The position numbers and the translations under genes were made by a program. This document shows positions 27,867-59,790 of a stretch of DNA of 64,000 nucleotides, one piece after another; position 1 is the stretch's first letter; each line of letters begins with the position of its first letter. The notes beneath the pieces are model-generated. The model ran no database searches and was not told where the DNA came from. It saw nothing but the letters and a program-made list of their open reading frames with translations. The stretch spans positions 10,984-74,983 of the forward strand of contig WOYX01000024.1 in the NCBI GenBank assembly GCA_011620595.1, written 5' to 3'. The stretch is from Bacteroidales bacterium (GTDB lineage: Bacteria > Bacteroidota > Bacteroidia > Bacteroidales > VadinHA17).

Positions 27867-29450
27867 TCATCTTGTCTTTATTACTGCAAATTTACGTACT
27901 GATCGCCCGTTTTCGGTCTGCAGCAGGCAGAAATATATCCCCGGAGCATAGTCACCGGCATAAAGTGTTTCGTTGTACATTCCCGGCTCCATTATCCTGT
28001 CTGCCAGTGCGGCGACCAGTCTGCCGTCAGTGCTGTAGACCTGCAAGATTACACGTGATCTGCTGAGAATGCGGTAATCAATTACTGCCATGTCACTTAC
28101 AGGGTTCGGAGTAACGGTGATGATCTGATCTTCATCCTGTGTGAATGTTCCATCATCAGAAGAGGTAGTTCCCGTGATGGCTGCTTTCAGGCCGTTCCAC
28201 AGTTCGTCGCGTCCCGCTTCATAGCTCAGGGCCCATATGCCTATCCCTGCCAGGTGGAGGTCCATGGCCAGGTTGTTCTTCATCTGGAGGCTGAGGCTGT
28301 CGTCATACCACATCTGCCGCCACTGCCCGGAGCTCTGGTAACTTATCCATGGTACGCCTGTTGTCTGATCAAAAGTTACAGTGTGATTGGCTGCCAGGTT
28401 TAGGGCGGAGTTGTACAGTCGTGATGTTCCTGTGCCTGTAGTAGGGGCTTTTCTGTCGCTGCTGGTCACGGGCCAGTCGTAGCCGTACCATGGCACTCCG
28501 AGCAGCAGTTTGCCGGACGGCACGCCGTCACCGATATAGTCTTCGTTCAGGCTTCGGGTGATGTTGTAATTCTCCCCTGAAACGGGGGCTACCGGTCCGG
28601 CAGTGGAAGATCCGCTCCAGTAATAGTTGTAGCCCATCATAATAAGGTAGTCACAGATGCCGGCCAGCACTGCCAGGTCCCATCCGTCAGACCAGTTTAC
28701 TGCCGGCGTTGCCAGTGATATCTCGGCAAAGGGTAGTGCCCCCTTGATGCCTCTTACTGCCCTGCGGCAGAAGCTGACCATATTGGCCTTCTGAGCTGAA
28801 GGCACGCTCTCGAAATCGAAGTTGACACCGTCACCGTTGCGAGCCTGCAGCTGAGAAACCAGGTTGTTGATGAGGTTCCACTGCTTGACGGTGTCAGTGA
28901 GCAGCTCGGTATTGCGTGCAGAACCGAAGTTGGTGACGGTGAGGATCACCTTAACGCCTCTCTGGTGTGCATAGCTGATTATGGGAGTGGTATCCCACCC
29001 TCTCAGTGTTGTATATCCTCCGGTTGCTGTGTCAACCTCGTAACTGAAGTAGGCTATATGGGTGAGTACGTCATAGTCGTAATAAATGTAAGCGGTTGAC
29101 CCGGCCCAGTAGGGATGCCATCCGAAGACCATGGGATTTTCGCCTCCGTTCTTAATGACAGTCAGCGGTGCAGGCTTCTCCCCGGCGTTTACTGCGGACC
29201 GCCGTCCTGCTGCACTTCGTGGTCGGGATTGAGCCTCCTCCCCGACACTCCTTGTAAGGGACTTGTCCTCCGTCGGAGTCTCAAACTGCGGACTGCTGAC
29301 TGAAGATTTAAAGAGTGAGTCATAGATCTTCCCGTAGTACTCGCTCTCAACCTGATGTATGCCTTTGACTTTTGGCACAGGATCCTGGGCGACGGCCTTC
29401 ATCATGATGAGAGCTGACAGCATCAGAGCCAGTGTGATCTTAACGGGCAT
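27867..29450 (-). CDS. Secreted glycoside hydrolase family 18 enzyme with a T9SS C-terminal sorting domain
   Basis: GH18 catalytic motif DGVNFDFE (DxxDxDxE). The C-terminal ~80 aa (ITVTPNPVSDMAVIDY...GIYFCLLQTENGRSVRKFAVIK) form a Por-secretion tail. The start is placed at the ATG at 29450 (MPVKITLALMLSALIMMKAVAQ), which removes the overlap with the GntR gene. Confidence 0.75.
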   Translation of the reverse strand: MPVKITLALMLSALIMMKAVAQDPVPKVKGIHQVESEYYGKIYDSLFKSSVSSPQFETPTEDKSLTRSVGEEAQSRPRSAAGRRSAVNAGEKPAPLTVIKNGGENPMVFGWHPYWAGSTAYIYYDYDVLTHIAYFSYEVDTATGGYTTLRGWDTTPIISYAHQRGVKVILTVTNFGSARNTELLTDTVKQWNLINNLVSQLQARNGDGVNFDFESVPSAQKANMVSFCRRAVRGIKGALPFAEISLATPAVNWSDGWDLAVLAGICDYLIMMGYNYYWSGSSTAGPVAPVSGENYNITRSLNEDYIGDGVPSGKLLLGVPWYGYDWPVTSSDRKAPTTGTGTSRLYNSALNLAANHTVTFDQTTGVPWISYQSSGQWRQMWYDDSLSLQMKNNLAMDLHLAGIGIWALSYEAGRDELWNGLKAAITGTTSSDDGTFTQDEDQIITVTPNPVSDMAVIDYRILSRSRVILQVYSTDGRLVAALADRIMEPGMYNETLYAGDYAPGIYFCLLQTENGRSVRKFAVIKTR

Positions 29451-29472
29451 GCAGGCAGGGAAGAGCGAATTG

Positions 29473-30198
29473 TCAGGTTGCCTTGAAATACTTTTTATAT
29501 ATCTCCATGTTCCGTTCAAGGAGGGTGACGGAGACCTCATGAGCCTCCTGGCTATCCTTTTTTTTGAGGGCATCAAGGAGCTCTCTCTGGTATTTCAGGG
29601 TATACTCCTTCTCGCCTTCAATATTTCCGTAGATGAGGTTTCTCATGCGCGGGAGAAGGGAATAGACGGGTTCCATGCTGATGATGACAATGGGATTGCC
29701 GGTTGCTTTTGAGAGGTTCATATGGAACCGGTTGATAAGGTCGACCTCAAGCTGGGTGTTGTCAGGATTGCATTTTTCGAGATCTGCCTGGTTTTTCTGG
29801 AGGATACGTATGTCCTCGTCGCTCCTGTTGCGTGCAGCCAGTCTTGCCACCTCCGGTTCGAAGAGCCTGCGCACCTCTATGATCTGCAGTATCAGGTCCG
29901 AGTTGAACCTGAGGTCATAGAAGAGGTGGAGGGAGTTGATGGCATCCTCTATCTTCAGCTCCGTGATATACATGCCGCTTCCCTTGCGTATATCGATCAG
30001 TCCGCGTGCACTCAGGCGGCGCAGAGCCTCACGGAGGGCAGTACGGCTCACCGCAAACTGGGCGCAGAGCTCTTTTTCCGTGGGAAGCTTTGATCCGGGC
30101 AGTAGTTTCTTCTGCCTTATAGCTTCTTCAATTCTCCTCTCTATTTTCTGGCTGAGAGTGAGTCCCGAGCCGATTTTACTGAAGACGTCGTCTGCCAT
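29473..30198 (-). CDS. GntR-family transcriptional regulator (FadR/FCD-type C-terminal domain)
   Basis: wHTH LPTEKELCAQFAVSRTALREALRRLSARGLIDIRKGSGMYI followed by an all-helical effector domain. Confidence 0.85.
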   Translation of the reverse strand: MADDVFSKIGSGLTLSQKIERRIEEAIRQKKLLPGSKLPTEKELCAQFAVSRTALREALRRLSARGLIDIRKGSGMYITELKIEDAINSLHLFYDLRFNSDLILQIIEVRRLFEPEVARLAARNRSDEDIRILQKNQADLEKCNPDNTQLEVDLINRFHMNLSKATGNPIVIISMEPVYSLLPRMRNLIYGNIEGEKEYTLKYQRELLDALKKKDSQEAHEVSVTLLERNMEIYKKYFKAT

Positions 30199-30252
30199 GT
30201 CAGTGGTTATTTTTCAGATCAGGACAAATATCTTCTATCCCGTTCATTATGT

Positions 30253-31107
30253 TTATTCATAGTGTTCCCTGTAAAACTCCAGGGCCTTTTTTACCGATCC
30301 CTGCTCCATCAGCAGTATGCGGGCTGCCTCCCTCTGGATGTCCAGCTCCTCAACTATCATCCTGGTACCACGTTCTATCAGCTTCTTGTTGGTGAGCTGC
30401 ATGTTGACCATCTTGTTTCCCTTTACCCGGCCCAGCTTGATCATGAGCGTTGTGGTGATCATGTTCAGCACCATCTTCTGTGCGGTGCCGGCCTTCAGCC
30501 GTGTGCTTCCTGTCACAAACTCAGGTCCTACAACCACCACCACCGGGTACTCGGCGACCTTCACCAGCGGGCTGTCAGGGTTGCATGTGATGCATCCGGT
30601 CAGGATGCCGTTCTGCCTTGCTCTCTGTACCCCACCGATAACATACGGGGTGGTTCCGGAAGCAGCTATCCCGATAACCGAATCCTTGGTGTTGATGTTG
30701 AAAATCTCCAGCTCGCTCCACGCTTTGGAGGGGTCATCCTCGGCAGATTCTACAGCCTTGCGAAGCGCGGTCTCTCCTCCGGCAATCAGCCCGATAACCA
30801 CGGTATCGGGCACACCGAAGGATGGAGGCACCTCTGAGGCGTCCAGCACCCCCAGCCTGCCGCTGGTGCCTGCCCCGAGATAGAAGAGCCTGCCGCCCTT
30901 TTGCATTCTTCCGTGGATCTGGTTGATGAGAGTCTCTATCTGCGGGATCGCTTCCCTGACAGCCAGGTGTACCTTTGCATCTTCCTGGTTTATATTCGTC
31001 AGCAACTCATTGACTGTCATCTTGTCAAGATCCTCAAAGTTGGAGGGCGACTCGGTAATGCTGAGCTGTTGTCTTGTAAGACCTGCTTTACTCGTGGTTC
31101 GGTACAT
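30253..31107 (-). CDS. murQ: N-acetylmuramic acid 6-phosphate etherase
   Basis: Collinear with E. coli MurQ as I recall it: GGRLFYLGAGTSGRLGVLDASEVPPSFG, IGIAASGTTPYVIGG, VTGSTRLKAGTAQKMVLNMITT. The start is placed at the ATG at 31107 (285 aa). The track ORF extends further upstream into the preceding gene. Confidence 0.9.
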   Translation of the reverse strand: MYRTTSKAGLTRQQLSITESPSNFEDLDKMTVNELLTNINQEDAKVHLAVREAIPQIETLINQIHGRMQKGGRLFYLGAGTSGRLGVLDASEVPPSFGVPDTVVIGLIAGGETALRKAVESAEDDPSKAWSELEIFNINTKDSVIGIAASGTTPYVIGGVQRARQNGILTGCITCNPDSPLVKVAEYPVVVVVGPEFVTGSTRLKAGTAQKMVLNMITTTLMIKLGRVKGNKMVNMQLTNKKLIERGTRMIVEELDIQREAARILLMEQGSVKKALEFYREHYE

Positions 31108-31948
31108 CTGGATTCCGGATATGATATTTAACGAGGTTGTCCATCGGAGAGAGGGAGAAAATTCCCGGCTGCAACCTGTGCTCAATAAGCAGCTTCTCGA
31201 GAAATGGCCTGAAATGATATGCAATGCTGCCTGTAAAATGGACAGGATAGTCCCAGGCCTCCGGATAGGAGAGCACATTCCTAACGATGAACTCATCAAA
31301 ACTGGATGTTATTATCGCCTGCAGTTCCGGTATATGTAGGTTGTCAGCGATGAAGAGTGAAAACTGACCAAGAAATTTATTGGGGAAAGGCATGTTGTAC
31401 ACTCTCTCAAGTATCTGAGCCGGAGTATAGTTATAAGTCTTAAAGAAGGTATCTATTACCTCATCCGGGAACTGCTTCTTCAGGATACCTGATACCAGTT
31501 TTCTGCCGATAACAGCACCGCCTCCCTCGTCGCCAAGGATATAACCCAGGGGTGAGACATTCGAGACAATATTTCTTCCGTCATAGTAGCATGAGTTGGA
31601 CCCTGTGCCAATTATGCATGCAATACCTGGCTGATCCATGCAGAGCGACCGCGCTGCACCCAGCAGGTCACTGCCGATAAACAGCTCTTCAATACCAAAA
31701 AAGGAGGTCAGTGCTCCCTTTACTATCTCAACCTTTGAGGCGTTGCTGACTCCGGTACAGTAAAAAAACACTTTGCTGACACCCGCATTTGCAAGCTCAG
31801 GTATCTCTTTACCCAGCATATTGTTTATCTCCTCACGGTTAACAAAAAAAGGATTTATGCCGGAAGATGTGTATGACTTCCCATTACCGGTCTCTGCAAC
31901 CTCTCTCCATTCAGTCTTGGTGGAGCCACTGTCAGCGATCAGTATCAT
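31088..31948 (-). CDS. BadF/BadG/BcrA/BcrD-type ASKHA sugar kinase (MurNAc/GlcNAc kinase, MurK-like)
   Basis: MILIADSGSTKTEW (phosphate-1 motif) and IIGTGSNS (phosphate-2 motif). 286 aa, directly upstream of murQ with a 20-nt overlap. Confidence 0.7.
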   Translation of the reverse strand: MILIADSGSTKTEWREVAETGNGKSYTSSGINPFFVNREEINNMLGKEIPELANAGVSKVFFYCTGVSNASKVEIVKGALTSFFGIEELFIGSDLLGAARSLCMDQPGIACIIGTGSNSCYYDGRNIVSNVSPLGYILGDEGGGAVIGRKLVSGILKKQFPDEVIDTFFKTYNYTPAQILERVYNMPFPNKFLGQFSLFIADNLHIPELQAIITSSFDEFIVRNVLSYPEAWDYPVHFTGSIAYHFRPFLEKLLIEHRLQPGIFSLSPMDNLVKYHIRNPDVPNHE

Positions 31949-32080
31949 GATTGGATAAGAATGTATATTTATTTGTTAACCAATTTATTACATATACTGC
32001 ACAAATATGGCTGATTAAATTTAATTCCTAATGTTGTAACAAGTGTATGTAATTATACCGAAATATACAGATTTTTGTCA

Positions 32081-32091
32081 GATGTATGACA
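32081..32091 (+). promoter_or_regulatory. GATGTATGACA motif (GT-N3-AC core); candidate operator in the divergent murK / amidase-operon promoter region
   Basis: The same 11-mer recurs at 60388-60398 and, inverted, at 60573-60583. The 9-mer core TGTATGACA also occurs at 50139-50147. All copies are intergenic. Confidence 0.4.
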
Positions 32092-32108
32092 CATTTATAA
32101 AAACTTTC

Positions 32109-32116
32109 TACTTTTG
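32109..32116 (+). promoter_or_regulatory. Candidate -7 box TACTTTTG (TAnnTTTG)
   Basis: Exact consensus match, 38 nt upstream of the ATG at 32154, in an AT-rich 205-nt divergent intergenic region. Confidence 0.4.
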
Positions 32117-32153
32117 AATCATAATTACTAATTTAAGCAAAAAAATATCAGAG

Positions 32154-35100
32154 ATGCGAAGATCCAATCTCCTCTTTTCCCTTTTCCTTTTTCTGATTGT
32201 GCCCGGAATGTTTCAGCCTCTGTCGGGGCAGAAACCCGGCAGGATGCAGCGAATCGCTGAATCAAGGTTGGGTGAGTGGGTCACACCCATCCCGGAATGG
32301 CTTTTCCCGGAAGAGCTGAAGATCGATTCCGTGAGTGTTGATGATCAGCAGAAGGAGGTCAGCATCTGGTTGCCGGCCGAGGCAGCCCATAACCCTGTCA
32401 GGGAGGAGTCGCACGCGCACCTGGTAAACTCCCTCAGGGAGAGTCTGGGAAGGAGATTTTCCGGGTACGGTATAACTGTCCTGTGCGGCGGTCAGCCTCT
32501 TGAGGAGCTCATACCTAACTACTTCAGATATGAGCTTTCCCGTGACGCCGGGAGGATACCTCCCGCGCCGGAGTCGAGGCCCCGGCTTGTACAACGGATC
32601 GGGTCCGCTGAGTATTCCGAAGGTCTTGACGGCAGGAATATTGCCCTGTGGCACAGTCACGGCTACTATTTCGACATGACCCTGGACCGCTGGGAGTGGC
32701 AGCGTGCCAAGCTCTTCGGCAGTGTGGAGGATCTTTCGGTCATGGCCTATGTCATTCCATACCTTGTACCCATGCTTGAGAATTCCGGCGCAACGGTATT
32801 CATACCGCGCGAAAGGGATATCCAGCTAAATGAAGTCATCGTTGATAACAACGGCTCTACGGGCAACTCCGAGTTTGTATTGCAGGTAACCGAGCCTCCC
32901 GTGGAAGCCGGTCCGGGATTCCTGCTCAGGGATACACTCTTCAGCGGTGACAATCCTTTCCTCATGGGCACCTCCCTGACCATCAGCGACGGCTCTGCGC
33001 TGTTTATTCCCGAGATACCCGAAAAGGGATCTTACGGTGTCACGGTCTCCTGGCCCCGCCTGACTGACAATGCAGGCAAGGCGCTTGTCAGGGTCAGTCA
33101 CACCGGCGGCGTGACCGAATTTATTGCAGACCAGTCGATAGGAGGCGGCACCTGGGTCTGGCTCGGTTCCTTCATCTTCGATAAGGGGCTTGACCGCGAC
33201 AGGGGTTCTGTCACCCTCACCTCGACCGACGGTTCACCGGTGGCCGTTGATGCTGTCCGCTTCGGAGGAGGGATGGGCAACGTAGCCCGCCGTCCCTCAT
33301 CATCGGTGATAGCAAACCAGTGGTCGCTCAATGCCGGCGACCAGCCTGCCGGTGATGAGAGCCAATCCGCCGTGAGCTACAGCTGGAAGCTGAGCGGCAA
33401 GCCGAGGTATCTTGAGGCTGCCCGCTACTGGCTCCAGTTTGCAGGTATGCCTGACACACTCGTCTATACTGTTAACCATGGGAGAAACGATTACAATGAC
33501 GACTACATGTCGCGTGCCGAATGGGTCAACTACCTGAATCGCGAGCCCGACAGTACCGGCGGCAACGGCATGGGTATCCCCGTTGACCTCTCCTTCGCAT
33601 TTCATACAGATGCAGGCATCACGCCCGATGATTCCATCATTGGCACTCTCGGTATCTATTCCACCGCAACCAACGAAGGCAGATTCCCCGACGGCACCAG
33701 TCGTCTCGCCAGCCGTGATCTCACTGATATCGTTCAGACCCAGATCGTCGAGGACATATATGTGCTCTTTAATCCCGACTGGACCCGGCGTGCCATGTGG
33801 GACCGTTCCTATTATGAGGCACGCAAGCCCGATGTGCCCGCCATGCTTCTGGAACTGCTCTCTCATCAGAACCTGGCCGACCAGCGTTACGGGTTTGACC
33901 CGCGCTTTCGCTTTCATGTGAGCCGTGCCGTTTACAAGGGTATCCTACGCTACCTGGCCACCGCCTCTGGTATGGAGTATACCATTCATCCGCTGCCAGT
34001 CTCGCACATGGAGCTTGCTCCCCTTGGTGGCAAGAGTGTCAGGCTTAGCTGGACGCCTGTAACTGATCCCCTGGAGTCGACCGCTGACCCGCTCTCATAC
34101 AAAGTATATATGGCTGTCGGCGACAACGGCTTTGATAATGGAAGGGAGGTGACCGGCACCATCCTTAACATCGAGCTTCCGTCATACAACATGCTCTACC
34201 GGTTCAGGGTTACCGCACTGAATGAGGGGGGAGAGAGCTTCCCCTCAGAAACGCTCTCGGCAGGCTTTGTGGCGGATTCTCCGGAGACCGTGCTTGTTGT
34301 CAGCGGCTTTGACCGTATCTCCGGCCCCTCCTGGTTTGACCGCGGCGGTATGGCCGGCGTCGCGTGGTGGGATGACCGCGGGGTGGCTGACCATTACAAT
34401 TTCTCGAATACCGGCGACCAGTATGACTTTAACCGCAGGTCGCCGTGGACAGATGATGACAATGCAGGATGGGGTGCTTCATGGTCTGACGGCGAGGGAA
34501 AGATTATCCCGGGGAACACATTCGACTTTTCTGCCATCCACGGCAGTTCAATCATGGCTGCCGGCAGGTCGTTCATCTCGGTCAGCGATGAGGTGTTCAA
34601 CAGTCCTGAATTCGATCTCAGACCATACGCTGCCGTTGACCTGCTCTTCGGTGAAGAGAAGAGCACACCTTCAGCCTGTTATCCTGAGAGGAAGGAGTTT
34701 CAGATATACACCCCTGAGTTCATGCGGAGCCTGGAGAGACTCACGGAGGCTTCCATACCACTATTCATGTCCGGGGCCTACATCGGCACCGATCTTATGA
34801 TCACGGCTGACAGCGCTGTCAGCGCAAAGGTGATGCAGCTCCTGCATTTCAAACCCCGGACTAACCACGCTGTAAGAACGGGTGAATTCTACGCCACCGA
34901 CATCGCAGGGCCTGACCTCTCAGGTAAATTTTCATTCAACACCGGATCTTATACCGGTATCTATGCAGCCGAATCACCCGATGCCATTGAACCGGCTGAC
35001 AGGAGATCGCGCACAGCATTCCGCTATTCGGAGAACAATACGTCAGCAGCCGTCATGCACAATGGAGAAGTGAGAACTGTGGTCACCGGATTCCCGTTTG

Positions 35101-35171
35101 AGACTGTAACTTCGCAGGAAGAGAGAGACAGACTCATGAAACAGATACTGGATTTCATCTTAAAGAGATAA
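32154..35171 (+). CDS. Large secreted protein with an Amidase_3-like (MurNAc-L-Ala amidase fold) core and an Fn3-like domain
   Basis: Signal peptide. NIALWHSHGYYF, VDLSFAFHTDAG and PAMLLELLSHQNLADQ resemble the Zn-ligand and catalytic-Glu blocks of Amidase_3. VRLSWTPVTDPLESTADPLSYKVYMAV is Fn3-like. Confidence 0.4.
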   Translation: MRRSNLLFSLFLFLIVPGMFQPLSGQKPGRMQRIAESRLGEWVTPIPEWLFPEELKIDSVSVDDQQKEVSIWLPAEAAHNPVREESHAHLVNSLRESLGRRFSGYGITVLCGGQPLEELIPNYFRYELSRDAGRIPPAPESRPRLVQRIGSAEYSEGLDGRNIALWHSHGYYFDMTLDRWEWQRAKLFGSVEDLSVMAYVIPYLVPMLENSGATVFIPRERDIQLNEVIVDNNGSTGNSEFVLQVTEPPVEAGPGFLLRDTLFSGDNPFLMGTSLTISDGSALFIPEIPEKGSYGVTVSWPRLTDNAGKALVRVSHTGGVTEFIADQSIGGGTWVWLGSFIFDKGLDRDRGSVTLTSTDGSPVAVDAVRFGGGMGNVARRPSSSVIANQWSLNAGDQPAGDESQSAVSYSWKLSGKPRYLEAARYWLQFAGMPDTLVYTVNHGRNDYNDDYMSRAEWVNYLNREPDSTGGNGMGIPVDLSFAFHTDAGITPDDSIIGTLGIYSTATNEGRFPDGTSRLASRDLTDIVQTQIVEDIYVLFNPDWTRRAMWDRSYYEARKPDVPAMLLELLSHQNLADQRYGFDPRFRFHVSRAVYKGILRYLATASGMEYTIHPLPVSHMELAPLGGKSVRLSWTPVTDPLESTADPLSYKVYMAVGDNGFDNGREVTGTILNIELPSYNMLYRFRVTALNEGGESFPSETLSAGFVADSPETVLVVSGFDRISGPSWFDRGGMAGVAWWDDRGVADHYNFSNTGDQYDFNRRSPWTDDDNAGWGASWSDGEGKIIPGNTFDFSAIHGSSIMAAGRSFISVSDEVFNSPEFDLRPYAAVDLLFGEEKSTPSACYPERKEFQIYTPEFMRSLERLTEASIPLFMSGAYIGTDLMITADSAVSAKVMQLLHFKPRTNHAVRTGEFYATDIAGPDLSGKFSFNTGSYTGIYAAESPDAIEPADRRSRTAFRYSENNTSAAVMHNGEVRTVVTGFPFETVTSQEERDRLMKQILDFILKR

Positions 35172-35180
35172 ACCAACGTT

Positions 35181-36659: not shown

Positions 36660-36730
36660 AAAGCAGCTGCAGGTAAAGCTGAAGAGCAGATGTATGCTGA
36701 GGAGTATTCACAGGGGAAATTGAAAACCAG

Positions 36731-50050: not shown

Positions 50051-50124
50051 ACTCCAGTTCACTCTGGTTCACTCCAGTTCACTCTAGTTCACTCTAGTTC
50101 ACTCTAGTTCACTCTAGTTCACTT
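50051..50124. repeat. Decanucleotide tandem array, 7 units (ACTCCAGTTC, ACTCTGGTTC, ACTCCAGTTC, then 4x ACTCTAGTTC) plus a partial unit
   Basis: Read directly. It lies in the divergent intergenic region between the namZ start (49985) and the NlpC/P60 start (50229). Confidence 0.95.
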
Positions 50125-50138: not shown

Positions 50139-50147
50139 TGTATGACA
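50139..50147 (+). promoter_or_regulatory. TGTATGACA motif copy in the namZ / NlpC-P60 divergent promoter region
   Basis: Exact 9-mer shared with 32083-32091, 60390-60398 and (inverted) 60573-60581. Confidence 0.35.
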
Positions 50148-50202: not shown

Positions 50203-50228
50203 AATTTGTAAGATGTAATACAACTTTC

Positions 50229-51595: not shown

Positions 51596-52735
51596 ATGAA
51601 AAAAAGAGATTTCATCAAGATCGGAGGCCTCGCAGCAGGGGCACTGATGGTTGGATGCACATCGGCTGTATCCGATGGCACTGTCAGAAAAGGCGGTGCC
51701 GCAAAGAAGGGCAGCGGGGTTCTGAAACTAAGTTACAGGCCTTATGAGCTGCAACTTAAACATGTATTTACCGTTGCAACAAACTCGAGGACAACCACTC
51801 CGGTGGTACTCACCTCGATTGAATATGACGGCGTCACCGGCTTTGGCGAGGCATCAATGCCTCCCTACCTGGGTGAGAGTCATGAGTCAGTGCTGAATTT
51901 CCTTTCGAAAGTTGACCTTGAACAGTTCAGTGATCCCTTCCTGATTGAGGATATTCTTGATTATATAGAAGGTGTCATGCCCGGCAACTATGCTGCCAAG
52001 GCCTCGCTTGACATCGCCCTGCATGACCTCACCGGCAAGCTTCTTGGCCAGCCGTGGTTCAGGCTGTGGGGACTCAACCCGGAGAAGACACCTCTTACCA
52101 GTTTCACGATTGGCATTGACACTGCTGACGTCGTCAGGGAGAAGACCCTGGAGGCCAGTGCCTTCAAATTGCTGAAGATCAAGCTCGGCCGTGATAACGA
52201 CAGGGAGATGATAGAGACGGTGAGATCGGTGACCGACGTGCCGATCTTCGTTGATGTCAACCAGGGATGGAAGGACAGGAATTATGCTCTGGAGATGGCC
52301 CATTTCCTGAATGAAAACCACGCTGAGTTCATTGAACAGCCGATGCCCAAGGAGCAGATCGATGACATCGCATGGCTGACGGAGAGGAGTCCTTTGCCGA
52401 TTGTCGCCGACGAGGCACTGCAGACGGTAGATCAGCTCCTCGGCATGAAGGGCATATACAGCGGCATCAATATCAAGCTGATGAAGTGTGGCGGCATGCA
52501 TGCCGCATACAAGATGATAACAATGGCCAGGCAGATGGGAATGAAGATATTGATAGGATGTATGACAGAAACCTCATGTGCGGTTTCGGCAGCAGCACAG
52601 CTATCTCCGCTGGTCGACTGGGCTGATCTTGACGGCAATCTATTGATAGCCAATGATATTTATGAAGGAATGACTGTGGTTGACGGCAGGGTGAAGCTTC
52701 CCGTTAGGCCAGGTATAGGCATAATTGAAATTTAA
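51596..52735 (+). CDS. Enolase-superfamily dipeptide epimerase (L-Ala-D/L-Glu epimerase, YkfB/YcjG-like) with an N-terminal export-like signal
   Basis: Collinear with B. subtilis YkfB as I recall it: KIKLGRDND, VDVNQGW, IEQPMP, VADEAL, INIKLMKCGG, GCMTETS, PGIGI. The N-terminus MKKRDFIKIGGLAAGALMVGC looks like a Tat-type/lipobox signal. Confidence 0.8.
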   Translation: MKKRDFIKIGGLAAGALMVGCTSAVSDGTVRKGGAAKKGSGVLKLSYRPYELQLKHVFTVATNSRTTTPVVLTSIEYDGVTGFGEASMPPYLGESHESVLNFLSKVDLEQFSDPFLIEDILDYIEGVMPGNYAAKASLDIALHDLTGKLLGQPWFRLWGLNPEKTPLTSFTIGIDTADVVREKTLEASAFKLLKIKLGRDNDREMIETVRSVTDVPIFVDVNQGWKDRNYALEMAHFLNENHAEFIEQPMPKEQIDDIAWLTERSPLPIVADEALQTVDQLLGMKGIYSGINIKLMKCGGMHAAYKMITMARQMGMKILIGCMTETSCAVSAAAQLSPLVDWADLDGNLLIANDIYEGMTVVDGRVKLPVRPGIGIIEI

Positions 52736-52750
52736 TACAGAAGATTCTAT

Positions 52751-54517
52751 ATGAATATTAAAGCGCGTCAGGAGGCTGAACACTTTCTGAAAAATGAGAC
52801 GCAATTTCATCTTGGCATGCTGCCGACAGAACAGGCTAATCCCAGGACCAGCAACCTCGACAGTATATTTGCTCAAAGCACCGGCGAGGGAGTGAAAACA
52901 CTGTTGTCAGTAGATACGGATATATTTCCGATGGCTGAAAAGATTTTCAGGAGCAGGGAGTATGACAAACTGGTAAAGGACGGAGTGAAGGCAATCTCCG
53001 ATGGAAAGAAGATTGTATTTTCAGGATGCGGCGCCACTGGCCGTTTAAGTATCCTGCTTGAATCATTCTGGAGATGCTTTTTCAGGGATCTGCGGCAGGA
53101 TCATCCGGATATCTATGAAAGAGTAAAACATGTTGAGAACTCCGTATTCAGTATTATGACGGGGGGTGATTACGCACTTATCAGGGCTGTGGAGTATTTT
53201 GAGGATTACCAGGAATTTGGCAGGCAGCAGGTGAGGGAACTTAATATTAACGAAGGCGATATTCTTGTTGCTATAACCGAGGGAGGTGAGACCTCGTCAG
53301 TTCTGGGCACACTTGCAGAAGCTGCTGACAGGGGTGCTGAAGTATTCCTAATGTTTAACAATCCCGCCGATATCCTTTGCAAATATATTGAGCGTTCCAG
53401 AAAAGCCATTGAAGATCCTCGTGTTACTGTGCTTGACCTGTACTGCGGACCGATGGCAATTGCAGGCTCCACACGGATGCAGGCAACAACATCGGAACAG
53501 CTAATTGCCGGGGCAGCCCTGGAATCAATACTGGGAGGGACTTTCAGCAAGCTGCTTTCAGCTGAAGAACTGAAGATTCTCAATATCAGGGAGATTGATT
53601 ATGCCGGGGCATACAATGAGATGCTAAATGAACTGCTCTCTGTTGAAAACACGAAGATCCTCGGGGATTATATCCGGATGGAGCACGACATCTACAGCCG
53701 GAACGGACTGGTCACCTACTACGGCAATTCCCTGATGCTGGATATCTTCACTGACACTACCGAACGCTCTCCGACATTCATGCTACCGCCATTCAGGAAA
53801 TATGACGACACTGTTTCGCCACCATCATGGGCTTTTGTCAAGAATCCTCTTCTGCCCACTCCCGAAGCATGGGTAAATGTCCTGGGGCGTACCCCCAGAT
53901 GTCTTGAGTGGGAGGGGGAACTGTACAGTAAAATGAATGCTCCGCAGGCACTCATATCAGACCCTCCTCAGCTTGATATATCGCAGATCCTCAAATTTCA
54001 GATCGGCAATGAAGAGGATAAATCACGTTTATCAAGAAAGCCTAATGTTGCAGTTAATGTGATCAGTCGCCTGGAAGTGACACGGCCGGAATATGAAGAC
54101 TATCAGGCAGCCTTCAATGAAGAAGCGGAAAAGTACCTGAGCAGATATTCCCTGATAATAGGGACATGCGATGAGGCAGCCAGTTATAAGATATCCTGTT
54201 CGCCGCAAAGTTCGGTTTTCAGTCTAATGGACCGGCTGGCAGTCAAGCTTGTACTGAATACGGTTTCGACCGGAACCATGGTTTTAATGGGAAGGGTGTT
54301 GGGCAACTGGATGAGCTGGGTTGATGTTACCAACAAGAAGCTTAAAGACAGAGGCATAAGGTTGATTTCCGATATCTGTAACATGAGTTACGAAGAGGCG
54401 TGCTATGCCCTCCATGAATCACTGGAAGAATTAAAATCCTACAATTTTTCCGAGAAGGAAAAACCATCGCCGGTTCAGTACACTATTAAGAAGATCATAT
54501 CTTCCCGGAAGGATTGA
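52751..54517 (+). CDS. Double-SIS, MurQ-related protein of glucokinase-regulatory-protein (GCKR) architecture
   Basis: 588 aa, against 285 aa for MurQ. FSGCGATGRLS and CGPMAIAGSTRMQATTSEQL parallel MurQ GAGTSGRLG and GSTRLKAGTAQK. A long extra C-terminal half is present. Confidence 0.55.
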   Translation: MNIKARQEAEHFLKNETQFHLGMLPTEQANPRTSNLDSIFAQSTGEGVKTLLSVDTDIFPMAEKIFRSREYDKLVKDGVKAISDGKKIVFSGCGATGRLSILLESFWRCFFRDLRQDHPDIYERVKHVENSVFSIMTGGDYALIRAVEYFEDYQEFGRQQVRELNINEGDILVAITEGGETSSVLGTLAEAADRGAEVFLMFNNPADILCKYIERSRKAIEDPRVTVLDLYCGPMAIAGSTRMQATTSEQLIAGAALESILGGTFSKLLSAEELKILNIREIDYAGAYNEMLNELLSVENTKILGDYIRMEHDIYSRNGLVTYYGNSLMLDIFTDTTERSPTFMLPPFRKYDDTVSPPSWAFVKNPLLPTPEAWVNVLGRTPRCLEWEGELYSKMNAPQALISDPPQLDISQILKFQIGNEEDKSRLSRKPNVAVNVISRLEVTRPEYEDYQAAFNEEAEKYLSRYSLIIGTCDEAASYKISCSPQSSVFSLMDRLAVKLVLNTVSTGTMVLMGRVLGNWMSWVDVTNKKLKDRGIRLISDICNMSYEEACYALHESLEELKSYNFSEKEKPSPVQYTIKKIISSRKD

Positions 54518-54652
54518 GACTTAATTTAGGTCAAACAATTGAAAATTTGTAATACATATTATCAGAAAAAACATTTAACTTGCTTAAGTATTGAAACCAA
54601 TAATTCCATCTATATAACACAATCAATATTATTTAACCCTAAATCCAATCAC

Positions 54653-57600
54653 ATGAGAACAAAACTATTAATGTTGTTTGCGGTTTTGGGACTGATGCTC
54701 ACACAAGGCATTTATGCTCAGCCTAAGACCGTGACAGGGACTGTCACTGACGCCACGACGGGTGAACCGTTGCCGGGTGTCAATGTGATTATCAAGAACA
54801 CAACCACTGGTACCAGCACTGATCCGATGGGCAATTATTCCATTACTGTCGCAGCCGGACAGGTCTTGTCGTTTAGCTCATTGGGATATGAAACGCAAGA
54901 GGTAAATGTTGGTTCCGCTTCTCGTATTGACGTCAGGCTGAGTTTGGGTACGGAGATGATCGAAGATGTTGTGGTAGTTGCCTATGGTACCCAGAAAAGG
55001 GCAAATTTAACTGGTCCTGTATCAACAGTAGATGTGGGCAAGACATTGGAATCCAGACCTATTACAGATGTTGGTCGCGCCCTTCAGGGTTCGACTCCCG
55101 GCTTGATTGTTACCACTACCTCAGGTCAGATAGGAGAAGAACCAAACATTAAGATCCGTGGAATGGTGGGTACCATAAGCGGGAATACCGGTAATCCTCT
55201 TATTCTGGTAGACCAGGTGGAAGTCCCCAGCCTTAGCTACATTAATCCGGATGACATTGAGAGCATTTCAATTTTAAAGGATGGGTCATCGACTGCAATT
55301 TATGGGCCCAGGGCTGCATTCGGAGCTGTTTTGATAACTACCAAGAAAGGTAGTAAAGAAGGCAAGACCAGGGTCTCATATTCAAATAACTTTTCATGGG
55401 CAACCCCAACACAGGTTCCACAACATACCCGGGCAGACCTTAACCTACAGTATTCTCTGGATCAGCAGAATGCGCTAAAAACAACTCCCACATATGAGTA
55501 TGGCTATGTCGGATTCTATTATAATCCTGATGTTGTGGCAAAGGTTAAAAACTGGATTGACACTTATGGTGATGGGAGTGACCTTGGACGAGAGATGGTG
55601 GAAGGCAGAGACTTTGAATACAGAGCTGCCGGGGGTGCCTATTTCTACAGGCCATGGGATATATATAACATATACTATAAGGACTGGGCACCTCAGCAGA
55701 ATCAGAATCTGTCGGTCAGCGGTGGAAATCAAAGTACACAATATAGTATTTCAATGGGTTACATGAACCAGAAAGGTTCTCTTAAGCTTTTTGATGATTT
55801 CTATAAGAGGCTTAATACTGCAGGTTCTGTAAGTACGGATGTTACGAAATGGCTTACTGTCAGAGGCAACTATATGTATGCTAAAACTTCTGAAGAAACT
55901 CCTTTTCTTTATGCCGCTACCGCTTATGCTCCGATTTATTACCTGTACCGCTGGCATCAGACGTATCCTTATGGCACATACAATGGTTACGAGTTCCGTG
56001 GTGGTGTTAATGACCTGAAATCGGCACGCCCGATGGAGGATGATACTTATTATAGTCGTTATACTTTAGGGGCTACAATAAAGTTATTTGAAGGGTTGTC
56101 CCTGGATTTTGATTATACTTATGGTCAGACATTTTCCACTCATCACAGGGTGGGGGGCCAGGTCCTTGGGGTTGATTTCTGGAACAGGACCACAGCTCCT
56201 GCCAGTGACACCTTCGAAGAAGTGACCAGGGTTTATTCGACTGCATCATATGATTATGCACAGTACAACTCATCCAAGAATCTCAGGAACACCTATAACG
56301 GTTATTTGACATATGAGAAAACTTTGGGTGACCATGCCTTCAAGGTACAGACCGGAGTTAACTTTGAAGATGCTGAGTATATTTTTCATTCATCAAAAAG
56401 GAACCTTGTATATGATTTTGATAAACCGGAAGTGAATCTTGCCGGGGGAGATCAGTCTGCATCATCAAGTCATTCATGGTGGTCAGTGGCAGGGTTTTAT
56501 GGCAGGCTGAATTATGCCTTTAAAGACAGATACATACTGGAACTTAACGGTCGTTATGATGGTTCTTCAAGATTCTCTGATGTTGACCGCTGGGGATTCT
56601 TCCCATCAGCTTCTGCTGCCTGGATTGTCACTGAGGAGGATTTCGCCAAACCGCTGTTGCCTTATCTCAGCACCCTGAAACTGAGGGCCGCTTATGGTTC
56701 AATCGGCAACCAGGATGTGCCTCTTGCAGCATTCATTCCTACCCTAACGGTTACAAATCCAAGTGCCTCTGGTGCATACTGGCTGATTAACAATAATTTT
56801 GTTCCATACATTAATCATAATCCCAGCTCTCCTATGCCGGCTTTGGTGGATCCTTCACTAACATGGGAAATGGTTACTACCTTTGATGCCGGAGTAGATG
56901 CCAGGTTCTTTAATAACCGCCTTGGGATAACGTTTGACTGGTATCAGAGAAAAACGACGGGAATACTCTCACCGGGTGAGACAGTCCCGGCTTCAATTGG
57001 GGCTCCATCTGCAAGAAGGAACTTCGGTGAGCTTACAACTAATGGCATCGAATTGGCAGCAGACTATAATCACACATTTGCAAATGGTTTAAGAATAACA
57101 CTTACAGGTGCATTCTGGGATTATAAAACTGTAGTAACAAAATATGAATCGGCAGAGGATCCTTTAATCAGCTCGACATATTATGAAGGGAAAGTCCTTG
57201 GCGAAATATGGGGTTATAAGACGGAGGGGCTCTTTCAGCATGATGATTTCGTATGGGACGGGGATGCAATCCGCCAGATAGTAGTAAATACCCAATCAAA
57301 AAACCAGATGGCAGAGGGCGTAGCCAATCAATATTTGCTTGAGTCAGGATTATTCAAATTCAGCCCGGGCGATGTAAGATTTGCTGACCTCAATGGCAAT
57401 GACTCAATTGAATACGGCACCAACACAGTCGGTAACCCGGGAGACAGGACCGTAATCGGAAATACTCAACCCCGTTATCAGTTTAGTTTCAGTGTTGGGG
57501 GAGACTGGAAAGGATTTGACCTGAGGGTTTTCTTCCAGGGTGTAGGAAAACGTAACCTTTGGGCTACTGGTAACATGGTACTTCCGGGGTGGTATGGCGC

Positions 57601-57982
57601 CGAAGCCAACTTTGCTCATACAATTGATTACTGGACTCCGGAAAATACAGATGCTTTCTATCCAAGACCAATGGAATACAGTCAGATTGGGAAATGGAAT
57701 TACCTACCAAATGACAGATACATTCTGAATATGGCTTATGTCAGGCTGAAGACTCTGACATTTGGATATACACTGCCGCATAACCTGACCAGCAAGATCC
57801 AGGTTGAAAAACTGAGAGTTTACTTCAGTGGCGAGAACCTGTTTGAGTTTGATAAAATGGGCGATATACCAATAGATCCTGAACTCGACTGGACCGCTGC
57901 AACGAGTGCTGACGGTCGTTCCTATGGAAGAAGTTATCCTTACAGAAGAACCCTGGCATTTGGTGTCCAAGTACAATTCTAA
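54653..57982 (+). CDS. SusC/RagA-family TonB-dependent outer-membrane transporter
   Basis: The start is placed at the ATG at 54653 (MRTKLLMLFAVLGLMLTQGIYAQ). Carboxypeptidase-regulatory-like domain TVTGTVTDATTGEPLPGVNVIIKNTTTGTSTDPMGNYSI. TonB box EDVVVVAYG. Plug ILKDGSSTAIYGPRAAFGAVLITTKKG. Confidence 0.9.
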   Translation: MRTKLLMLFAVLGLMLTQGIYAQPKTVTGTVTDATTGEPLPGVNVIIKNTTTGTSTDPMGNYSITVAAGQVLSFSSLGYETQEVNVGSASRIDVRLSLGTEMIEDVVVVAYGTQKRANLTGPVSTVDVGKTLESRPITDVGRALQGSTPGLIVTTTSGQIGEEPNIKIRGMVGTISGNTGNPLILVDQVEVPSLSYINPDDIESISILKDGSSTAIYGPRAAFGAVLITTKKGSKEGKTRVSYSNNFSWATPTQVPQHTRADLNLQYSLDQQNALKTTPTYEYGYVGFYYNPDVVAKVKNWIDTYGDGSDLGREMVEGRDFEYRAAGGAYFYRPWDIYNIYYKDWAPQQNQNLSVSGGNQSTQYSISMGYMNQKGSLKLFDDFYKRLNTAGSVSTDVTKWLTVRGNYMYAKTSEETPFLYAATAYAPIYYLYRWHQTYPYGTYNGYEFRGGVNDLKSARPMEDDTYYSRYTLGATIKLFEGLSLDFDYTYGQTFSTHHRVGGQVLGVDFWNRTTAPASDTFEEVTRVYSTASYDYAQYNSSKNLRNTYNGYLTYEKTLGDHAFKVQTGVNFEDAEYIFHSSKRNLVYDFDKPEVNLAGGDQSASSSHSWWSVAGFYGRLNYAFKDRYILELNGRYDGSSRFSDVDRWGFFPSASAAWIVTEEDFAKPLLPYLSTLKLRAAYGSIGNQDVPLAAFIPTLTVTNPSASGAYWLINNNFVPYINHNPSSPMPALVDPSLTWEMVTTFDAGVDARFFNNRLGITFDWYQRKTTGILSPGETVPASIGAPSARRNFGELTTNGIELAADYNHTFANGLRITLTGAFWDYKTVVTKYESAEDPLISSTYYEGKVLGEIWGYKTEGLFQHDDFVWDGDAIRQIVVNTQSKNQMAEGVANQYLLESGLFKFSPGDVRFADLNGNDSIEYGTNTVGNPGDRTVIGNTQPRYQFSFSVGGDWKGFDLRVFFQGVGKRNLWATGNMVLPGWYGAEANFAHTIDYWTPENTDAFYPRPMEYSQIGKWNYLPNDRYILNMAYVRLKTLTFGYTLPHNLTSKIQVEKLRVYFSGENLFEFDKMGDIPIDPELDWTAATSADGRSYGRSYPYRRTLAFGVQVQF

Positions 57983-57993
57983 AACATATAACT

Positions 57994-59790
57994 ATGAAAG
58001 GAAAAATATTTTTAATTATAACGATACTTCTGGGTCTGACAGGTTGTGAAGATTATCTGGACCGGAAGAATCTGGATTCCTTCGATGATGCCAACTTCTG
58101 GGTAAATGAAGGAAACCTGAGACTTTATGCAATGGGCAATTATGCAGGATATTCAAGCATCAGACCCGGATATTTCTACGGATATGGTACTGGTTTTGCC
58201 TACGGTAACTTTTTTACATTTGGACCATGGTCTGATGAGTACAGTTCAAGTTCGATATGGACTCAGAACACTGCAACTTCCGGAAACGGATGGGACTTTA
58301 CATGGGTAAGAAGGCACAACCTGATGATAGATCGAGTTCAGGGGATGACACTCTCTGATGAGGCAAAGAATCACTGGTTAGGCGTAGCGAGATTTTTTAG
58401 GGCTATGGAGTATTCAAAACTTGCTGCTTTATTTGGCGATATACCCTGGTATGATAAAGAAATCTTCCCGGGTGACTATGAGGTCATCTACAAAGACCGT
58501 GATCCGGTTGAATTTGTGGTTGGCAAAATCGCTGAAGACTTCGAATATGCTGCTGCAAACGTCAGGGAAGATGATGGCATGCTCCAGGTAAACCGTAATG
58601 TGGTACTGGCTTATATGTCCAGGCATTTGCTGTATTTCGGGACCTATTTGAAATACCACAATATTGATCTGCAAGTAGCTTCTACCATGCTCGAAAAGGC
58701 AAAGTGGGCAGCAGAACAGGTAATGAACAGCAATAAATTCGAAGTTGCTGACGATTATAGGGGGTTGTTTACTTCTGAAGACCTGAGTACAAATAAAGAG
58801 GTGATATTTTACCGTCAGTATGCTGATGCGAAAGCTACTCACTCTTTGGTCTCATATAATAATCAGGAAGCTCAGACCGGAACAACCCTTAAAATGGTCA
58901 ATACCTACCTCAGCACTGATGGCCTGCCTATCAAACAGTCGCCGCTATATGACTATGCCGCCGATAACGGGATCAGATATCCGGCTGCCCAGTTTGAAAA
59001 CAGAGACCCTAGGATGCTTGCCACAATGGTTGACTCAATCAGAATAAACCAGGTTCACAGCGCATATTCGACCACAGGATTCCTCTCCCTGAAGTTCCTT
59101 CCCGTAGGAGCCAATTCTGTTGATCCGAAATATAACAGTTCAACCAACTCAACCGACGCCCCGGTTATGAGATACGGAGAGGTTTTGCTGAACTATGCTG
59201 AGGCTGCGGCTGAACTCGGACAGTTTACCCAGACTGATGCAGACAAGACCATTAATCTTTTACGCGACCGTAATATCAAAAAGAACAATGAAGGTCCCGA
59301 CATGACAAAGCTTCCACCAATGACAGTTTCCGGAACAACGGTATTTGCCAACGGAGTGGAGATTAACGATCCTGACAGAGACCCGACAGTCAATCCTCTT
59401 ATCTGGGAGATCCGAAGAGAACGTTGTGTGGAGCTGCTGGGTGAAGGCTTCCGAAAGGCTGACCTGAGACGCTGGAAGAAATTTGAATATCTGAATACTC
59501 TTGAGACAGCGTCCGGTCCCACAACACTTGGCAAGGGTGCACTTGTTGACCTGATGGCCTTTTCGGCAGCTGACAGGCAAAAGATTGTCAAGGCAGTACA
59601 CTTTTGGCTTCCGGTCCCTGGAGACAGCACAAAGAGTTTCATATATAATCTGTATGACTCCAATATGCGTCGGGATTGGGTACCAGGTGACTCATTCTAT
59701 GAGAGACAATATCTGAACAGTGTTCCTCTGGATCAGATAAAGCTCTACAGTGATATGGGCTTTAACCTCACACAAAACTCAGGCTGGTAG
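57994..59790 (+). CDS. SusD/RagB-family outer-membrane lipoprotein
   Basis: Lipobox LLGLTGC followed by EDYLDRKNLDSF, a classic SusD N-terminus. 598 aa, starting 11 nt after the SusC stop. Confidence 0.9.
   Translation: MKGKIFLIITILLGLTGCEDYLDRKNLDSFDDANFWVNEGNLRLYAMGNYAGYSSIRPGYFYGYGTGFAYGNFFTFGPWSDEYSSSSIWTQNTATSGNGWDFTWVRRHNLMIDRVQGMTLSDEAKNHWLGVARFFRAMEYSKLAALFGDIPWYDKEIFPGDYEVIYKDRDPVEFVVGKIAEDFEYAAANVREDDGMLQVNRNVVLAYMSRHLLYFGTYLKYHNIDLQVASTMLEKAKWAAEQVMNSNKFEVADDYRGLFTSEDLSTNKEVIFYRQYADAKATHSLVSYNNQEAQTGTTLKMVNTYLSTDGLPIKQSPLYDYAADNGIRYPAAQFENRDPRMLATMVDSIRINQVHSAYSTTGFLSLKFLPVGANSVDPKYNSSTNSTDAPVMRYGEVLLNYAEAAAELGQFTQTDADKTINLLRDRNIKKNNEGPDMTKLPPMTVSGTTVFANGVEINDPDRDPTVNPLIWEIRRERCVELLGEGFRKADLRRWKKFEYLNTLETASGPTTLGKGALVDLMAFSAADRQKIVKAVHFWLPVPGDSTKSFIYNLYDSNMRRDWVPGDSFYERQYLNSVPLDQIKLYSDMGFNLTQNSGW

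Follow-up and report, generated by a model that had tools for sequence, protein, structure and literature searches.

How does a bacterium that lives on the cell walls of other bacteria bring the fragments through its own outer membrane? In guts, sediments and digesters, few bacterial polymers are as abundant as peptidoglycan, the fragments of which are also potent signals to the immune system. For Bacteroidota, the part of its scavenging that takes place at the inner membrane and in the cytoplasm is known from Tannerella forsythia; in the literature that we searched, neither the passage of the fragments across the outer membrane nor the enzyme that removes their stem peptides has been established. 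The question is raised by a stretch of DNA from an uncultured Bacteroidales genome, analysed here as a window of 64,000 nt, in which a block of approximately 32 kb (27867–59790) brings genes for the breakdown of peptidoglycan and the use of N-acetylmuramic acid (MurNAc) together with a SusC/SusD importer. A first, sequence-only reading had taken the block for a candidate peptidoglycan utilization locus tied to that importer. Our analysis leads to a related view: the block is likely to be a conserved Bacteroidales supercluster for the uptake and consumption of peptidoglycan, with three or four transcription units that probably make up one regulon. Genes were called from Pfam and NCBIfam profile searches and PDB sequence searches, and start codons were refined for several open reading frames (ORFs) of the window, including g1, g3 and g17 (genes are numbered g1 to g19 along the window, and loci of other genomes carry L numbers). 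The argument is built on the resulting domain identities, synteny and statistical associations, whereas substrates, localization and regulation are inferred, with the biochemical steps modelled on characterized homologues.

The SusC/SusD pair and its neighbourhoods

The importer consists of g17 (54653–57982, + strand), a SusC/RagA-type TonB-dependent transporter without an STN domain (TIGR04056, 807 bits against a cut-off of 368), and g18 (57994–59790, +), a SusD-family surface lipoprotein (PF07980, E=1e-34) with a lipobox, TGC, followed by E-D. A gap of 11 nt separates them, and the pair thus has the adjacent SusC and lipoprotein SusD by which a polysaccharide utilization locus (PUL) is recognized. 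We refer to this pair as type A. In approximately 20 related genomes, a SusC/SusD pair lies 3' of the same NamZ, P60, epimerase and GKRP-like genes, and the whole arrangement is kept in relatives at 65–97% protein identity, a conservation that, judged from the sequences, is more than chance. The nearest public contig belongs to the metagenome-assembled genome UBA4772, in which the GKRP-like protein is 97% identical.

At least five different gene orders place a homologue of this SusD beside peptidoglycan genes. In Petrimonas sulfuriphila (complete genome CP073276, locus L083; SusD 63% identical), the order is extracytoplasmic function (ECF)-sigma, FecR, SusC with an STN domain, SusD, GHL10, a g5-like gene, GT2, SpoIID, an AmpG-like gene and NamZ; in L087 (72% identical) it is NamZ, SusC, SusD, P60, epimerase, DUF5009, an AmgK-like kinase and a MurU-like transferase; and in L089 (60% identical) the SusD gene is near a GH3/β-lactamase fusion, NAGPA-Golvesin_C, GHL10 and a BadF kinase. 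Across 79 metagenome loci (SusD 84–30% identical), the gene immediately after SusD is often GH9-CE4, NamZ, GHL10 or P60, and MurQ and MurK recur. Among the loci of at least 10 kb, 27 of 46 contain at least one marker gene and 14 of 46 at least two; the corresponding figures for control loci of at least 10 kb are 2 of 51 and 0 of 51, the control being loci centred on distant g16 homologues in other phyla, which is an imperfect set for a contrast that is large. The proposed tie between peptidoglycan genes and importer is supported by these neighbourhoods, in which SusD homologues recur beside NamZ, MurQ, P60 and epimerase genes in several arrangements.

The start of SusC was placed at ATG 54653, where its signal peptide (MRTKLLMLFAVLG) begins, and not at TTG 54539, which leaves 135 bp between g16 and SusC (54518–54652, +). 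This spacer contains a TTGTAATACA box, a TAACTTGC box and a near-invariant leader that ends ATATAACCTAATCAATACTATTTAACCCTAAATCCAATCAC-ATG, and is a probable promoter and 5' untranslated region. Together with the first ~60 nt of SusC (54518–54720), it is nearly invariant in the loci of 15 relatives (L001–L020, L081, L094). SusC/SusD would thus probably have a promoter of its own and be co-regulated rather than co-transcribed with g16. The last operon had earlier been thought to continue into SusC/SusD; it is correct that no terminator stands between them, but the conserved, promoter-like spacer makes continuity doubtful, since with it co-transcription is not needed and may not occur.

What follows the spacer varies. 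Type B genes found at this site are 43% (SusC) and 35% (SusD) identical to type A, and those of a third type, D', approximately 30%; on these comparisons, a fixed promoter, leader and N-terminal module appear to precede an exchangeable barrel/SusD cassette (types A, B and D', 30–43% identical). BLASTN similarity to relatives reaches ~500 nt into SusC. Recent recombination within SusC was considered and rejected: the N-terminal 200 residues are just 68% identical to the L001 protein, and types A and B within genome L086 are also 68% identical there, an equality that indicates a conserved N-terminal module of paralogues and not a fresh crossover.

The importer and the enzymes have a DNA motif in common. 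The window contains the 9-mer TGTATGACA seven times (expected, 0.55), a number attained in none of 100 shuffles. One copy (32083–32091, +) lies in the promoter region shared by the divergent g4 and g5, 63 nt before g5; another (50139–50147, +) precedes g14 by 82 nt; one stands close to the 3' end of g15, ahead of g16; and two precede g19 (60390, +; 60573, –). A palindromic variant with one mismatch, TGTAATACA, is located at 54548–54557, ~100 nt upstream of SusC, and this site is kept in 13 of the 13 relatives with a readable spacer. The g5 site is kept 67 nt upstream of the orthologue in L090, conservation extending to a 72%-identity genome, and TGTATGACA is kept upstream of the P60 gene in L001, L003, L006, L010, L017, L018 and L081. 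Between the divergent namZ and NlpC/P60 genes, just upstream of the TGTATGACA site, there is also a 10-bp unit, ACTCTAGTTC, repeated 7.3 times in tandem (50051–50123), with its units spaced one helical turn apart.

The presence of TGTATGACA in promoter regions across the cluster suggests a single regulon. GH171, GH9-CE4 and GH18 are encoded within 32 kb with the motif in promoter regions, and may thus be co-regulated. GntR-family proteins bind half-palindromes of the TGT-N3-ACA kind, and this makes g2 (29473–30198, –), a GntR/FCD-family protein (PF00392 and PF07729; best NCBIfam match NanR, 120 bits, below the cut-off), the obvious candidate regulator; it would control all units through such sites. 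A domain search of the block bore out that g2 is its sole regulator: the sensors and regulators typical of PULs (hybrid two-component system (HTCS), ECF-sigma/anti-sigma, SusR) were not found, and SusC is without an STN domain.

A proposed route for wall fragments

Nearly every gene call of the sequence-only reading was confirmed by profile and PDB searches, and the calls can be arranged along a route from the wall to central metabolism. Outside the cell, g1 (27867–29450, –), a secreted GH18 protein (PF00704, E=2e-28) with a C-terminal sorting domain of the type IX secretion system (T9SS), would help to break up wall material. The sorting tail is recognized narrowly (Por_Secre_tail/TIGR04183, 24 bits against a cut-off of 23) and the signal peptide is provided by ORF M43. 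The position of GH18 beside MurQ is kept in relatives L090 and L091, which in addition have a T9SS M4 protease and a peptidase of the β-lactamase family. At the outer membrane, the surface lipoprotein SusD would bind wall fragments and the TonB-dependent SusC would take them across.

The next step would be the removal of stem peptides from MurNAc in the periplasm, for which the candidate is g5 (32154–35171, +), an exported protein of 1005 aa in which an Amidase_3-like domain is split by a Golvesin_C β-sandwich and followed by Fn3 and a C-terminal domain. NCBI labels its orthologues 'xanthan lyase'. The earlier description of an 'Amidase_3-like giant protein' is sub-threshold for the window protein alone (E=0.0047; 17.4 bits whole and 22.9 without the insertion, against a PF01520 gathering score of 27), but it is supported at the level of the family: PF01520 is matched by 19 of 20 full-length orthologues (53–72% identical). 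When residues 227–467 are spliced out, the match extends to profile positions 35–173, and the spliced domain matches PF01520 in 14 of 14 orthologues (best 8e-13). By inspection, the first third of the amidase fold (IALWHSHG, then LENSGATVFIPRERD) stands before the Golvesin_C insert and the remainder (FAFHTDAG, then VPAMLLELLSHQN) after it. In the PDB, a profile made from the spliced domain retrieves no proteins other than MurNAc-L-Ala amidases (top match 7RAG, E=0.002, then LytH, CwlV and AmiB), whereas the full-length profile finds just the xanthan-lyase C-terminal β-sandwich and Fn3, the amidase signal being seen after splicing. Across 20 orthologues, four residues (H169, E181, H484 and E567) do not vary; according to inspection and the profile alignment to 7RAG, they stand in motifs like GHGG, LxxxGxxVxxxRxxD, SxHxN and PxxLxE; they are candidate zinc or catalytic residues. 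We consider g5 to be a probable periplasmic muramoyl-L-alanine amidase.

The bare glycan would then be trimmed to MurNAc or GlcNAc-MurNAc by g13 (48729–49985, –), an exported NamZ (GH171) exo-β-N-acetylmuramidase. Both domains are matched (NamZ_N, E=8e-82, 274 bits; NamZ_C, 136 bits), as are PDB structures (514 bits to 4K05, BF0371; 183 bits to 4JJA), and the original call is borne out. The CelD_N-GH9-CE4 fusion g9 (39011–41479, +; PF00759, E=7e-68; PF01522), a periplasmic protein with a signal peptide, would probably act on the glycan too. The best PDB and NCBIfam matches of its CE4 half are PdaA-type MurNAc deacetylases, and its homologues lie directly 3' of the SusD family in ~10 metagenome loci.

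Two adjacent genes would process the released peptides. The lipoprotein g14 (50229–51401, +) combines SH3 and NlpC/P60 domains (PF00877, SH3_16, lipobox LAGC; 204 bits to 3PVQ, 193 to 3NPF and 108 to 3H41) and, as a YkfC-type γ-D-Glu-diamino-acid endopeptidase, would cut L-Ala-γ-D-Glu off the diamino acid. The L-Ala-D/L-Glu-type dipeptide epimerase g15 (51596–52735, +; 518 bits to 3IJI/3IJL/3IJQ, of which 3IJI is the Bacteroides thetaiotaomicron enzyme, and 145 bits to 1JPD) would turn L-Ala-D-Glu into L-Ala-L-Glu. That these form a YkfC/YkfB stem-peptide route, as first read, is confirmed by the PDB matches, with NCBIfam equivalog cut-offs not reached. The characterized epimerases YcjG and YkfB are cytoplasmic. 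At the N-terminus of g15 (51596–51680), a KRDFIK motif precedes a lipobox, MVGC, which predicts an exported lipoprotein, possibly Tat-dependent.

Import of the disaccharide through the inner membrane is assigned to g10 (41482–43152, +), a putative AmpG-family MFS permease (TIGR00901, 151 bits, below the cut-off) with the operon position of T. forsythia AmpG (PMC5388701, PMC7670621). In the cytoplasm, MurNAc would be phosphorylated by g4 (31088–31948, –), a MurK-type kinase with the BadF/ASKHA fold that was recognized by PDB sequence matches: 231 bits to the T. forsythia MurK structure 8OQW, 240 bits to K1058 and 265 bits to PG1100. In MurK, an S-P-L patch of small residues makes room for the lactyl ether (PMC10465942); S132-P133-L134 of g4 corresponds to this pocket (S133/P134/L135), and the patch is thus present. 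The etherase g3, MurQ (30253–31107, –; start refined to ORF M65), exceeds its cut-off (TIGR00274, 309.6 bits against 302) and would yield GlcNAc-6-P and D-lactate. The pocket residues and the TIGR00274 score confirm the MurK-like kinase and MurQ of the earlier reading.

The sugar would be passed to glycolysis by g12 (46170–48500, +), a long NagB-like protein of 776 aa (PRK02122, 185 bits, below the cut-off; nagB, 88 bits; PDB 3HN6, E=2.5e-21). Of the 'NagB-LmbE fusion' first described, the NagB-like half stands; the C-terminal half is probably LmbE-like, to judge from an HHDD motif at residue 413 and the below-cut-off PRK02122 match. D-Lactate is proposed to be oxidized by g11 (43170–46106, +), an FAD/Fe-S YdiJ/Dld-II-like 2-hydroxy-acid dehydrogenase (PF01565, PF02913, Fer4; YdiJ profile 558 bits against a cut-off of 1350), a protein type that adjoins NamZ in L087. 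The SpoIID, GH9-CE4, AmpG and Dld-II-type calls were likewise confirmed, with AmpG below curated cut-offs and the dehydrogenase YdiJ-like.

This mechanism leaves four proteins without a role: a GT2 protein, a DUF4922 protein, a SpoIID protein without a signal and a GKRP-like protein; the same is true of the GT2, DUF4922 and SpoIID counterparts in T. forsythia. The first two had been overlooked in the earlier list of genes. They are g6 (35181–36659, +), a cytoplasmic GT2 glycosyltransferase-like protein (PF00535, E=6e-20, residues 249–382), which is kept in position in L083, L090 and L091 and corresponds to 'gtf' of the T. forsythia operon, and g7 (36731–37669, +), a DUF4922/GDPGP1-like protein with a HIT/GalT-type nucleotidyl-transferase or phosphorylase fold (PF16269, E=5e-62), of which the orthologues in L090 and L091 match GDPGP1_C. 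The SpoIID/LytB-domain protein g8 (37666–39009, +; TIGR02669, 162 bits against a cut-off of 83) has no recognizable signal peptide or membrane anchor. SpoIID-type enzymes work on peptidoglycan outside the cytoplasm, yet g8 is signal-less and its GT2 and DUF4922/GDPGP1-like neighbours are cytoplasmic.

The GKRP-like protein g16 (52751–54517, +; 588 aa) has two SIS domains, a MurQ-like N-terminal half and a GKRP-like C-terminus (PF22645; PDB 4S12 and GKRP chains). It was tried as a second MurQ and rejected, with TIGR00274 at 126 bits against a cut-off of 302, a GKRP-like architecture and no peptidoglycan gene context outside its clade. Its earlier description as a GKRP-like MurQ paralogue stands as to architecture; a link to peptidoglycan outside the clade is absent. 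Relatives in Victivallales, Planctomycetes and other Bacteroidota occur with GH20, IclR, SSF/MFS transporters and GlcNAc 2-epimerase. A sodium:solute symporter (489 aa) stands directly 3' of the GKRP-like gene in L011–L015, L019, L021, L026, L034, L039 and L040, and in other genomes an MFS transporter, GH20 or GlcNAc 2-epimerase precedes it. These neighbours suggest that the family acts on an imported amino-sugar derivative, not necessarily from peptidoglycan.

Somewhat less than evenly supported, and put forward as a possibility, is a wider interpretation. The type-A SusC/SusD would be a dedicated Bacteroidota gateway for the peptidoglycan of others, used perhaps also by Tannerella-type MurNAc auxotrophs; the 'xanthan lyase' would be the missing periplasmic MurNAc-L-Ala amidase, a split Amidase_3 with an inserted carbohydrate-binding β-sandwich; and, with the exported YkfC and epimerase, the whole would amount to a complete periplasmic utilization system. 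The locus and its relatives in any case name candidates, the SusC/SusD family for passage through the outer membrane and the split Amidase_3 for peptide removal, and P. sulfuriphila is a cultivable carrier of them. If the interpretation is true, the SusD family is a metagenome marker for consumers of bacterial necromass.

Competing explanations and the flanks of the block

A number of findings weigh against a peptidoglycan supercluster that includes the importer, and several of them would fit a block whose enzymes only recycle the products of the cell's own wall, with SusC/SusD as an adjacent but unrelated pair, at a recombination-prone site, for the import of another nutrient. The 135-bp spacer, promoter- and leader-like, is as conserved as coding sequence and probably provides SusC with a promoter of its own. 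Relatives whose flanks are 90–97% identical carry another SusC barrel and SusD at the same site, which makes the transporter interchangeable, and among close relatives in general (flanks 80–97% identical) the cassette varies between A, B and D'. The same SusD type is also found away from enzymes: in one genome, types D, A, B and C form a tandem array without enzyme genes around it, three of eight individually inspected SusD contexts are stand-alone or tandem SusCD arrays, and 19 of the 46 SusD-family loci have no marker gene. The GC content of SusC/SusD is 0.45, below the 0.53–0.56 of g5–g13. This account we nevertheless consider unlikely. An unrelated neighbour would not be expected beside peptidoglycan genes in several unrelated arrangements and lineages, far above control, and the 9-mer variant is common to the SusC spacer and the other promoters of the cluster; moreover, the T9SS GH18, the NagB-like and D-lactate dehydrogenase-like end-steps and the exported peptide enzymes point to an exogenous substrate.

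Other points against the peptidoglycan supercluster concern its enzymes. By sequence, the GH18 of g1 resembles chitinases and endo-β-N-acetylglucosaminidases (ENGases) and the GH9 resembles endoglucanases, and to our knowledge neither family has known peptidoglycan-active members. Placement of the two in peptidoglycan-active subfamilies cannot be made by sequence, and it is gene context that would support it. Since the best-known GH18 enzymes are chitinases and ENGases, and exo-glucosaminidases occur in GH9, one may imagine a target of chitin or another GlcNAc-rich glycan, attacked by a GH18 chitinase, a CE4 chito-oligosaccharide deacetylase and a GH9 glucosaminidase with NagB downstream, the MurNAc genes merely sharing an amino-sugar regulon. 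Relatives of g16 do occur with GH20 and GlcNAc 2-epimerase, and TonB-dependent GlcNAc uptake clusters with GntR regulators are described in Caulobacter and Xanthomonas (PMC4173781). Such a target is improbable, however: the block has no GH20 or GH3 hexosaminidase, chitin-binding module or NagK/NagA-type set, the CE4 half resembles PdaA-type MurNAc deacetylases, and the neighbours of the SusD family elsewhere (NamZ, MurQ, MurK, AmgK/MurU-like, YkfC, epimerase) are peptidoglycan-specific. As to the remaining enzymes, an AlphaFold2 model of g5 made from a 20-sequence alignment is unusable (mean pLDDT 57, and <50 over the putative amidase region), and g16 adjoins no peptidoglycan genes outside this clade, its distant homologues having one marker nearby in 2 of 51 loci and two in none.

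A third proposal, to which we likewise give little chance, is that SusC/SusD, with the g19 pair, are RagAB-like importers of stem peptides or other oligopeptides and not of glycan-containing fragments: SusC/SusD follow directly on two stem-peptide enzymes, an M3 oligopeptidase follows the array in relatives, and the partner of g19-type SusC is SusD-like_2, as in non-glycan SusCD systems (of which RagAB and BT2263/4 are examples), but the genes immediately after the type-A pair in Petrimonas, as in many metagenome loci, belong to the glycan side (GHL10, GH9-CE4, NamZ or an amidase-like gene), and YkfC-type enzymes need a free N-terminal L-Ala, which fits the release of peptides by an amidase after import. 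Lastly, a search of the literature for a SusCD that imports peptidoglycan, or for a characterized 'peptidoglycan PUL', found none, and in the marine PUL papers searched peptidoglycan appears just as counts of GH23, GH73 and GH103; this also weighs against the peptidoglycan supercluster.

The limits of the block proved sound. The genes at 1–27866 (an M1 peptidase, another SusCD with BNR/sortilin, GH5, Hdr-like Fe-S proteins, PurL and DUF4126) have no relation to the cell wall, and the left boundary at 27867 therefore stands. One group of them, at 4848–12180, is a separate PUL-like cluster (a SusC/SusD-like_2 pair with a BNR/sortilin-repeat protein on each side, then DUF2961 and GH5) that is unrelated to the peptidoglycan block. 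In the window, GH18 directly abuts DUF4126 (27859–27867); in L090 (843–5826) and L091 (796–5753), three additional genes stand between the two, for a β-lactamase-family protein, a 125-aa protein and a T9SS-secreted M4 (thermolysin-like) protease. On the right, SusD is followed by the strong hairpin previously noted at 59835, an intrinsic terminator (59835–59862, +) with a 12-bp stem, eight G-C pairs and a T-tail. It is the only element used from a scan for σ70-type promoters and terminators, in which counts were no better than in shuffled sequence and of which the consensus does not apply to Bacteroidota.

Right after the hairpin, from 59872 to ~60330, there is a compact, ORF-less group II intron-like element that starts GTGCG and includes, near 60240, a hairpin resembling domain V; the score for Rfam RF02001 at 59955–60000 is 32.4 bits (gathering score 32), and the 5' part of the element is common to relatives L003 and L008. 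Class C introns typically insert just 3' of terminators. Beyond it, and outside the block, lies a second SusC, g19 ('type C'; 60784–63957, +; TIGR04056, 637 bits), which is 88–97% conserved in relatives (97% identical in L001) and may, on account of its upstream motif copies, belong to the same regulon. In L081 (12086–19585), a SusD-like_2 gene comes after its equivalent, and then an M3 oligopeptidase gene on the other strand, an arrangement that resembles peptide-type SusCD systems.

Comparison with known systems

The closest characterized relative is the T. forsythia operon Tanf_08345–08385, a single transcript under GppX that comprises 'xanthan lyase', gtf, gtf, lytB, ampG, namZ1, murT, murK and murQ (PMC5388701). 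Its AmpG imports GlcNAc-MurNAc and is required for growth on peptidoglycan (PMC7670621), and NamZ1 frees the disaccharide from peptide-free strands, a similar cluster being present in B. fragilis (bioRxiv 10.1101/2021.12.02.470905). The gene families common to both are 'xanthan lyase', GT2, a second gtf (DUF4922 in the window), SpoIID/LytB, AmpG, NamZ, MurK and MurQ, and the order g5-g6-g7-g8-g10 is identical, with orthology judged by names and gene order. The domain calls of the window thus reproduce the T. forsythia-type set and order, MurT being absent. From this order, g5-g6-g7-g8-(g9)-g10, it follows that the left half of the block is a member of a characterized system and not new. The differences are that the window has no MurT; that its regulator is GntR as opposed to the hybrid two-component GppX; that MurK and MurQ are on the opposite strand with GntR and GH18; that GH9-CE4 is inserted before ampG; and that a YdiJ-like dehydrogenase, a NagB-like protein, YkfC, epimerase, the GKRP-like protein and SusC/SusD are added.

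In Bacillus subtilis, namZ-nagZ-amiE-murQRP and ykfABCD provide similar functions: exo-lytic degradation of glycan by NamZ with an amidase, catabolism by MurQ, and YkfC with the YkfB epimerase for L-Ala-γ-D-Glu-diaminopimelate, g14 and g15 matching PDB 3H41 and 1JPM. The window differs in being Gram-negative, with an outer-membrane SusCD and without NagZ or the phosphotransferase-system transporter MurP, and its epimerase and endopeptidase carry export or lipoprotein signals and are not cytoplasmic. Canonical Bacteroidota PULs, for their part, have in common with the window an adjacent SusC and SusD, the latter a surface lipoprotein, as well as nearby glycoside hydrolases of the secreted and periplasmic kinds. 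They differ from it in their HTCS or ECF-sigma regulators, in place of which the window has GntR (the Petrimonas version has ECF-sigma/FecR and a SusC with STN), in that the probable substrate here is a glycopeptide, and in the position of SusCD at the end of the cluster, behind genes that do not encode carbohydrate-active enzymes.

A murein-directed PUL has also been described. In 2023, a ~27-kb PUL of an Urechidicola (Flavobacteriaceae) mussel symbiont was annotated as largely for murein, with two susCD pairs, murQ, nagB and ampG, and further genes for an L-Ala-D/L-Glu epimerase, an amidase, ampD, dacA and GH3/18/171 (PMC10199937). As far as can be compared from its description, it resembles the window in clustering SusCD with murQ, nagB, ampG, epimerase, amidase, GH18 and GH171. 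It differs in resting on annotation, in belonging to another class, in its DeoR regulator, SSF transporter, GH3, dacA and ampD, and in having no GH9-CE4, YdiJ-like or GKRP-like genes. The earlier suggestion that no locus of this kind had been described was therefore overstated, given that g5–g10 with NamZ, MurK and MurQ correspond to the T. forsythia operon and that a murein PUL is already in print. The locus is genuine and coherent, one half of it has been characterized before in other bacteria, and the idea of a murein PUL had been noted once in print.

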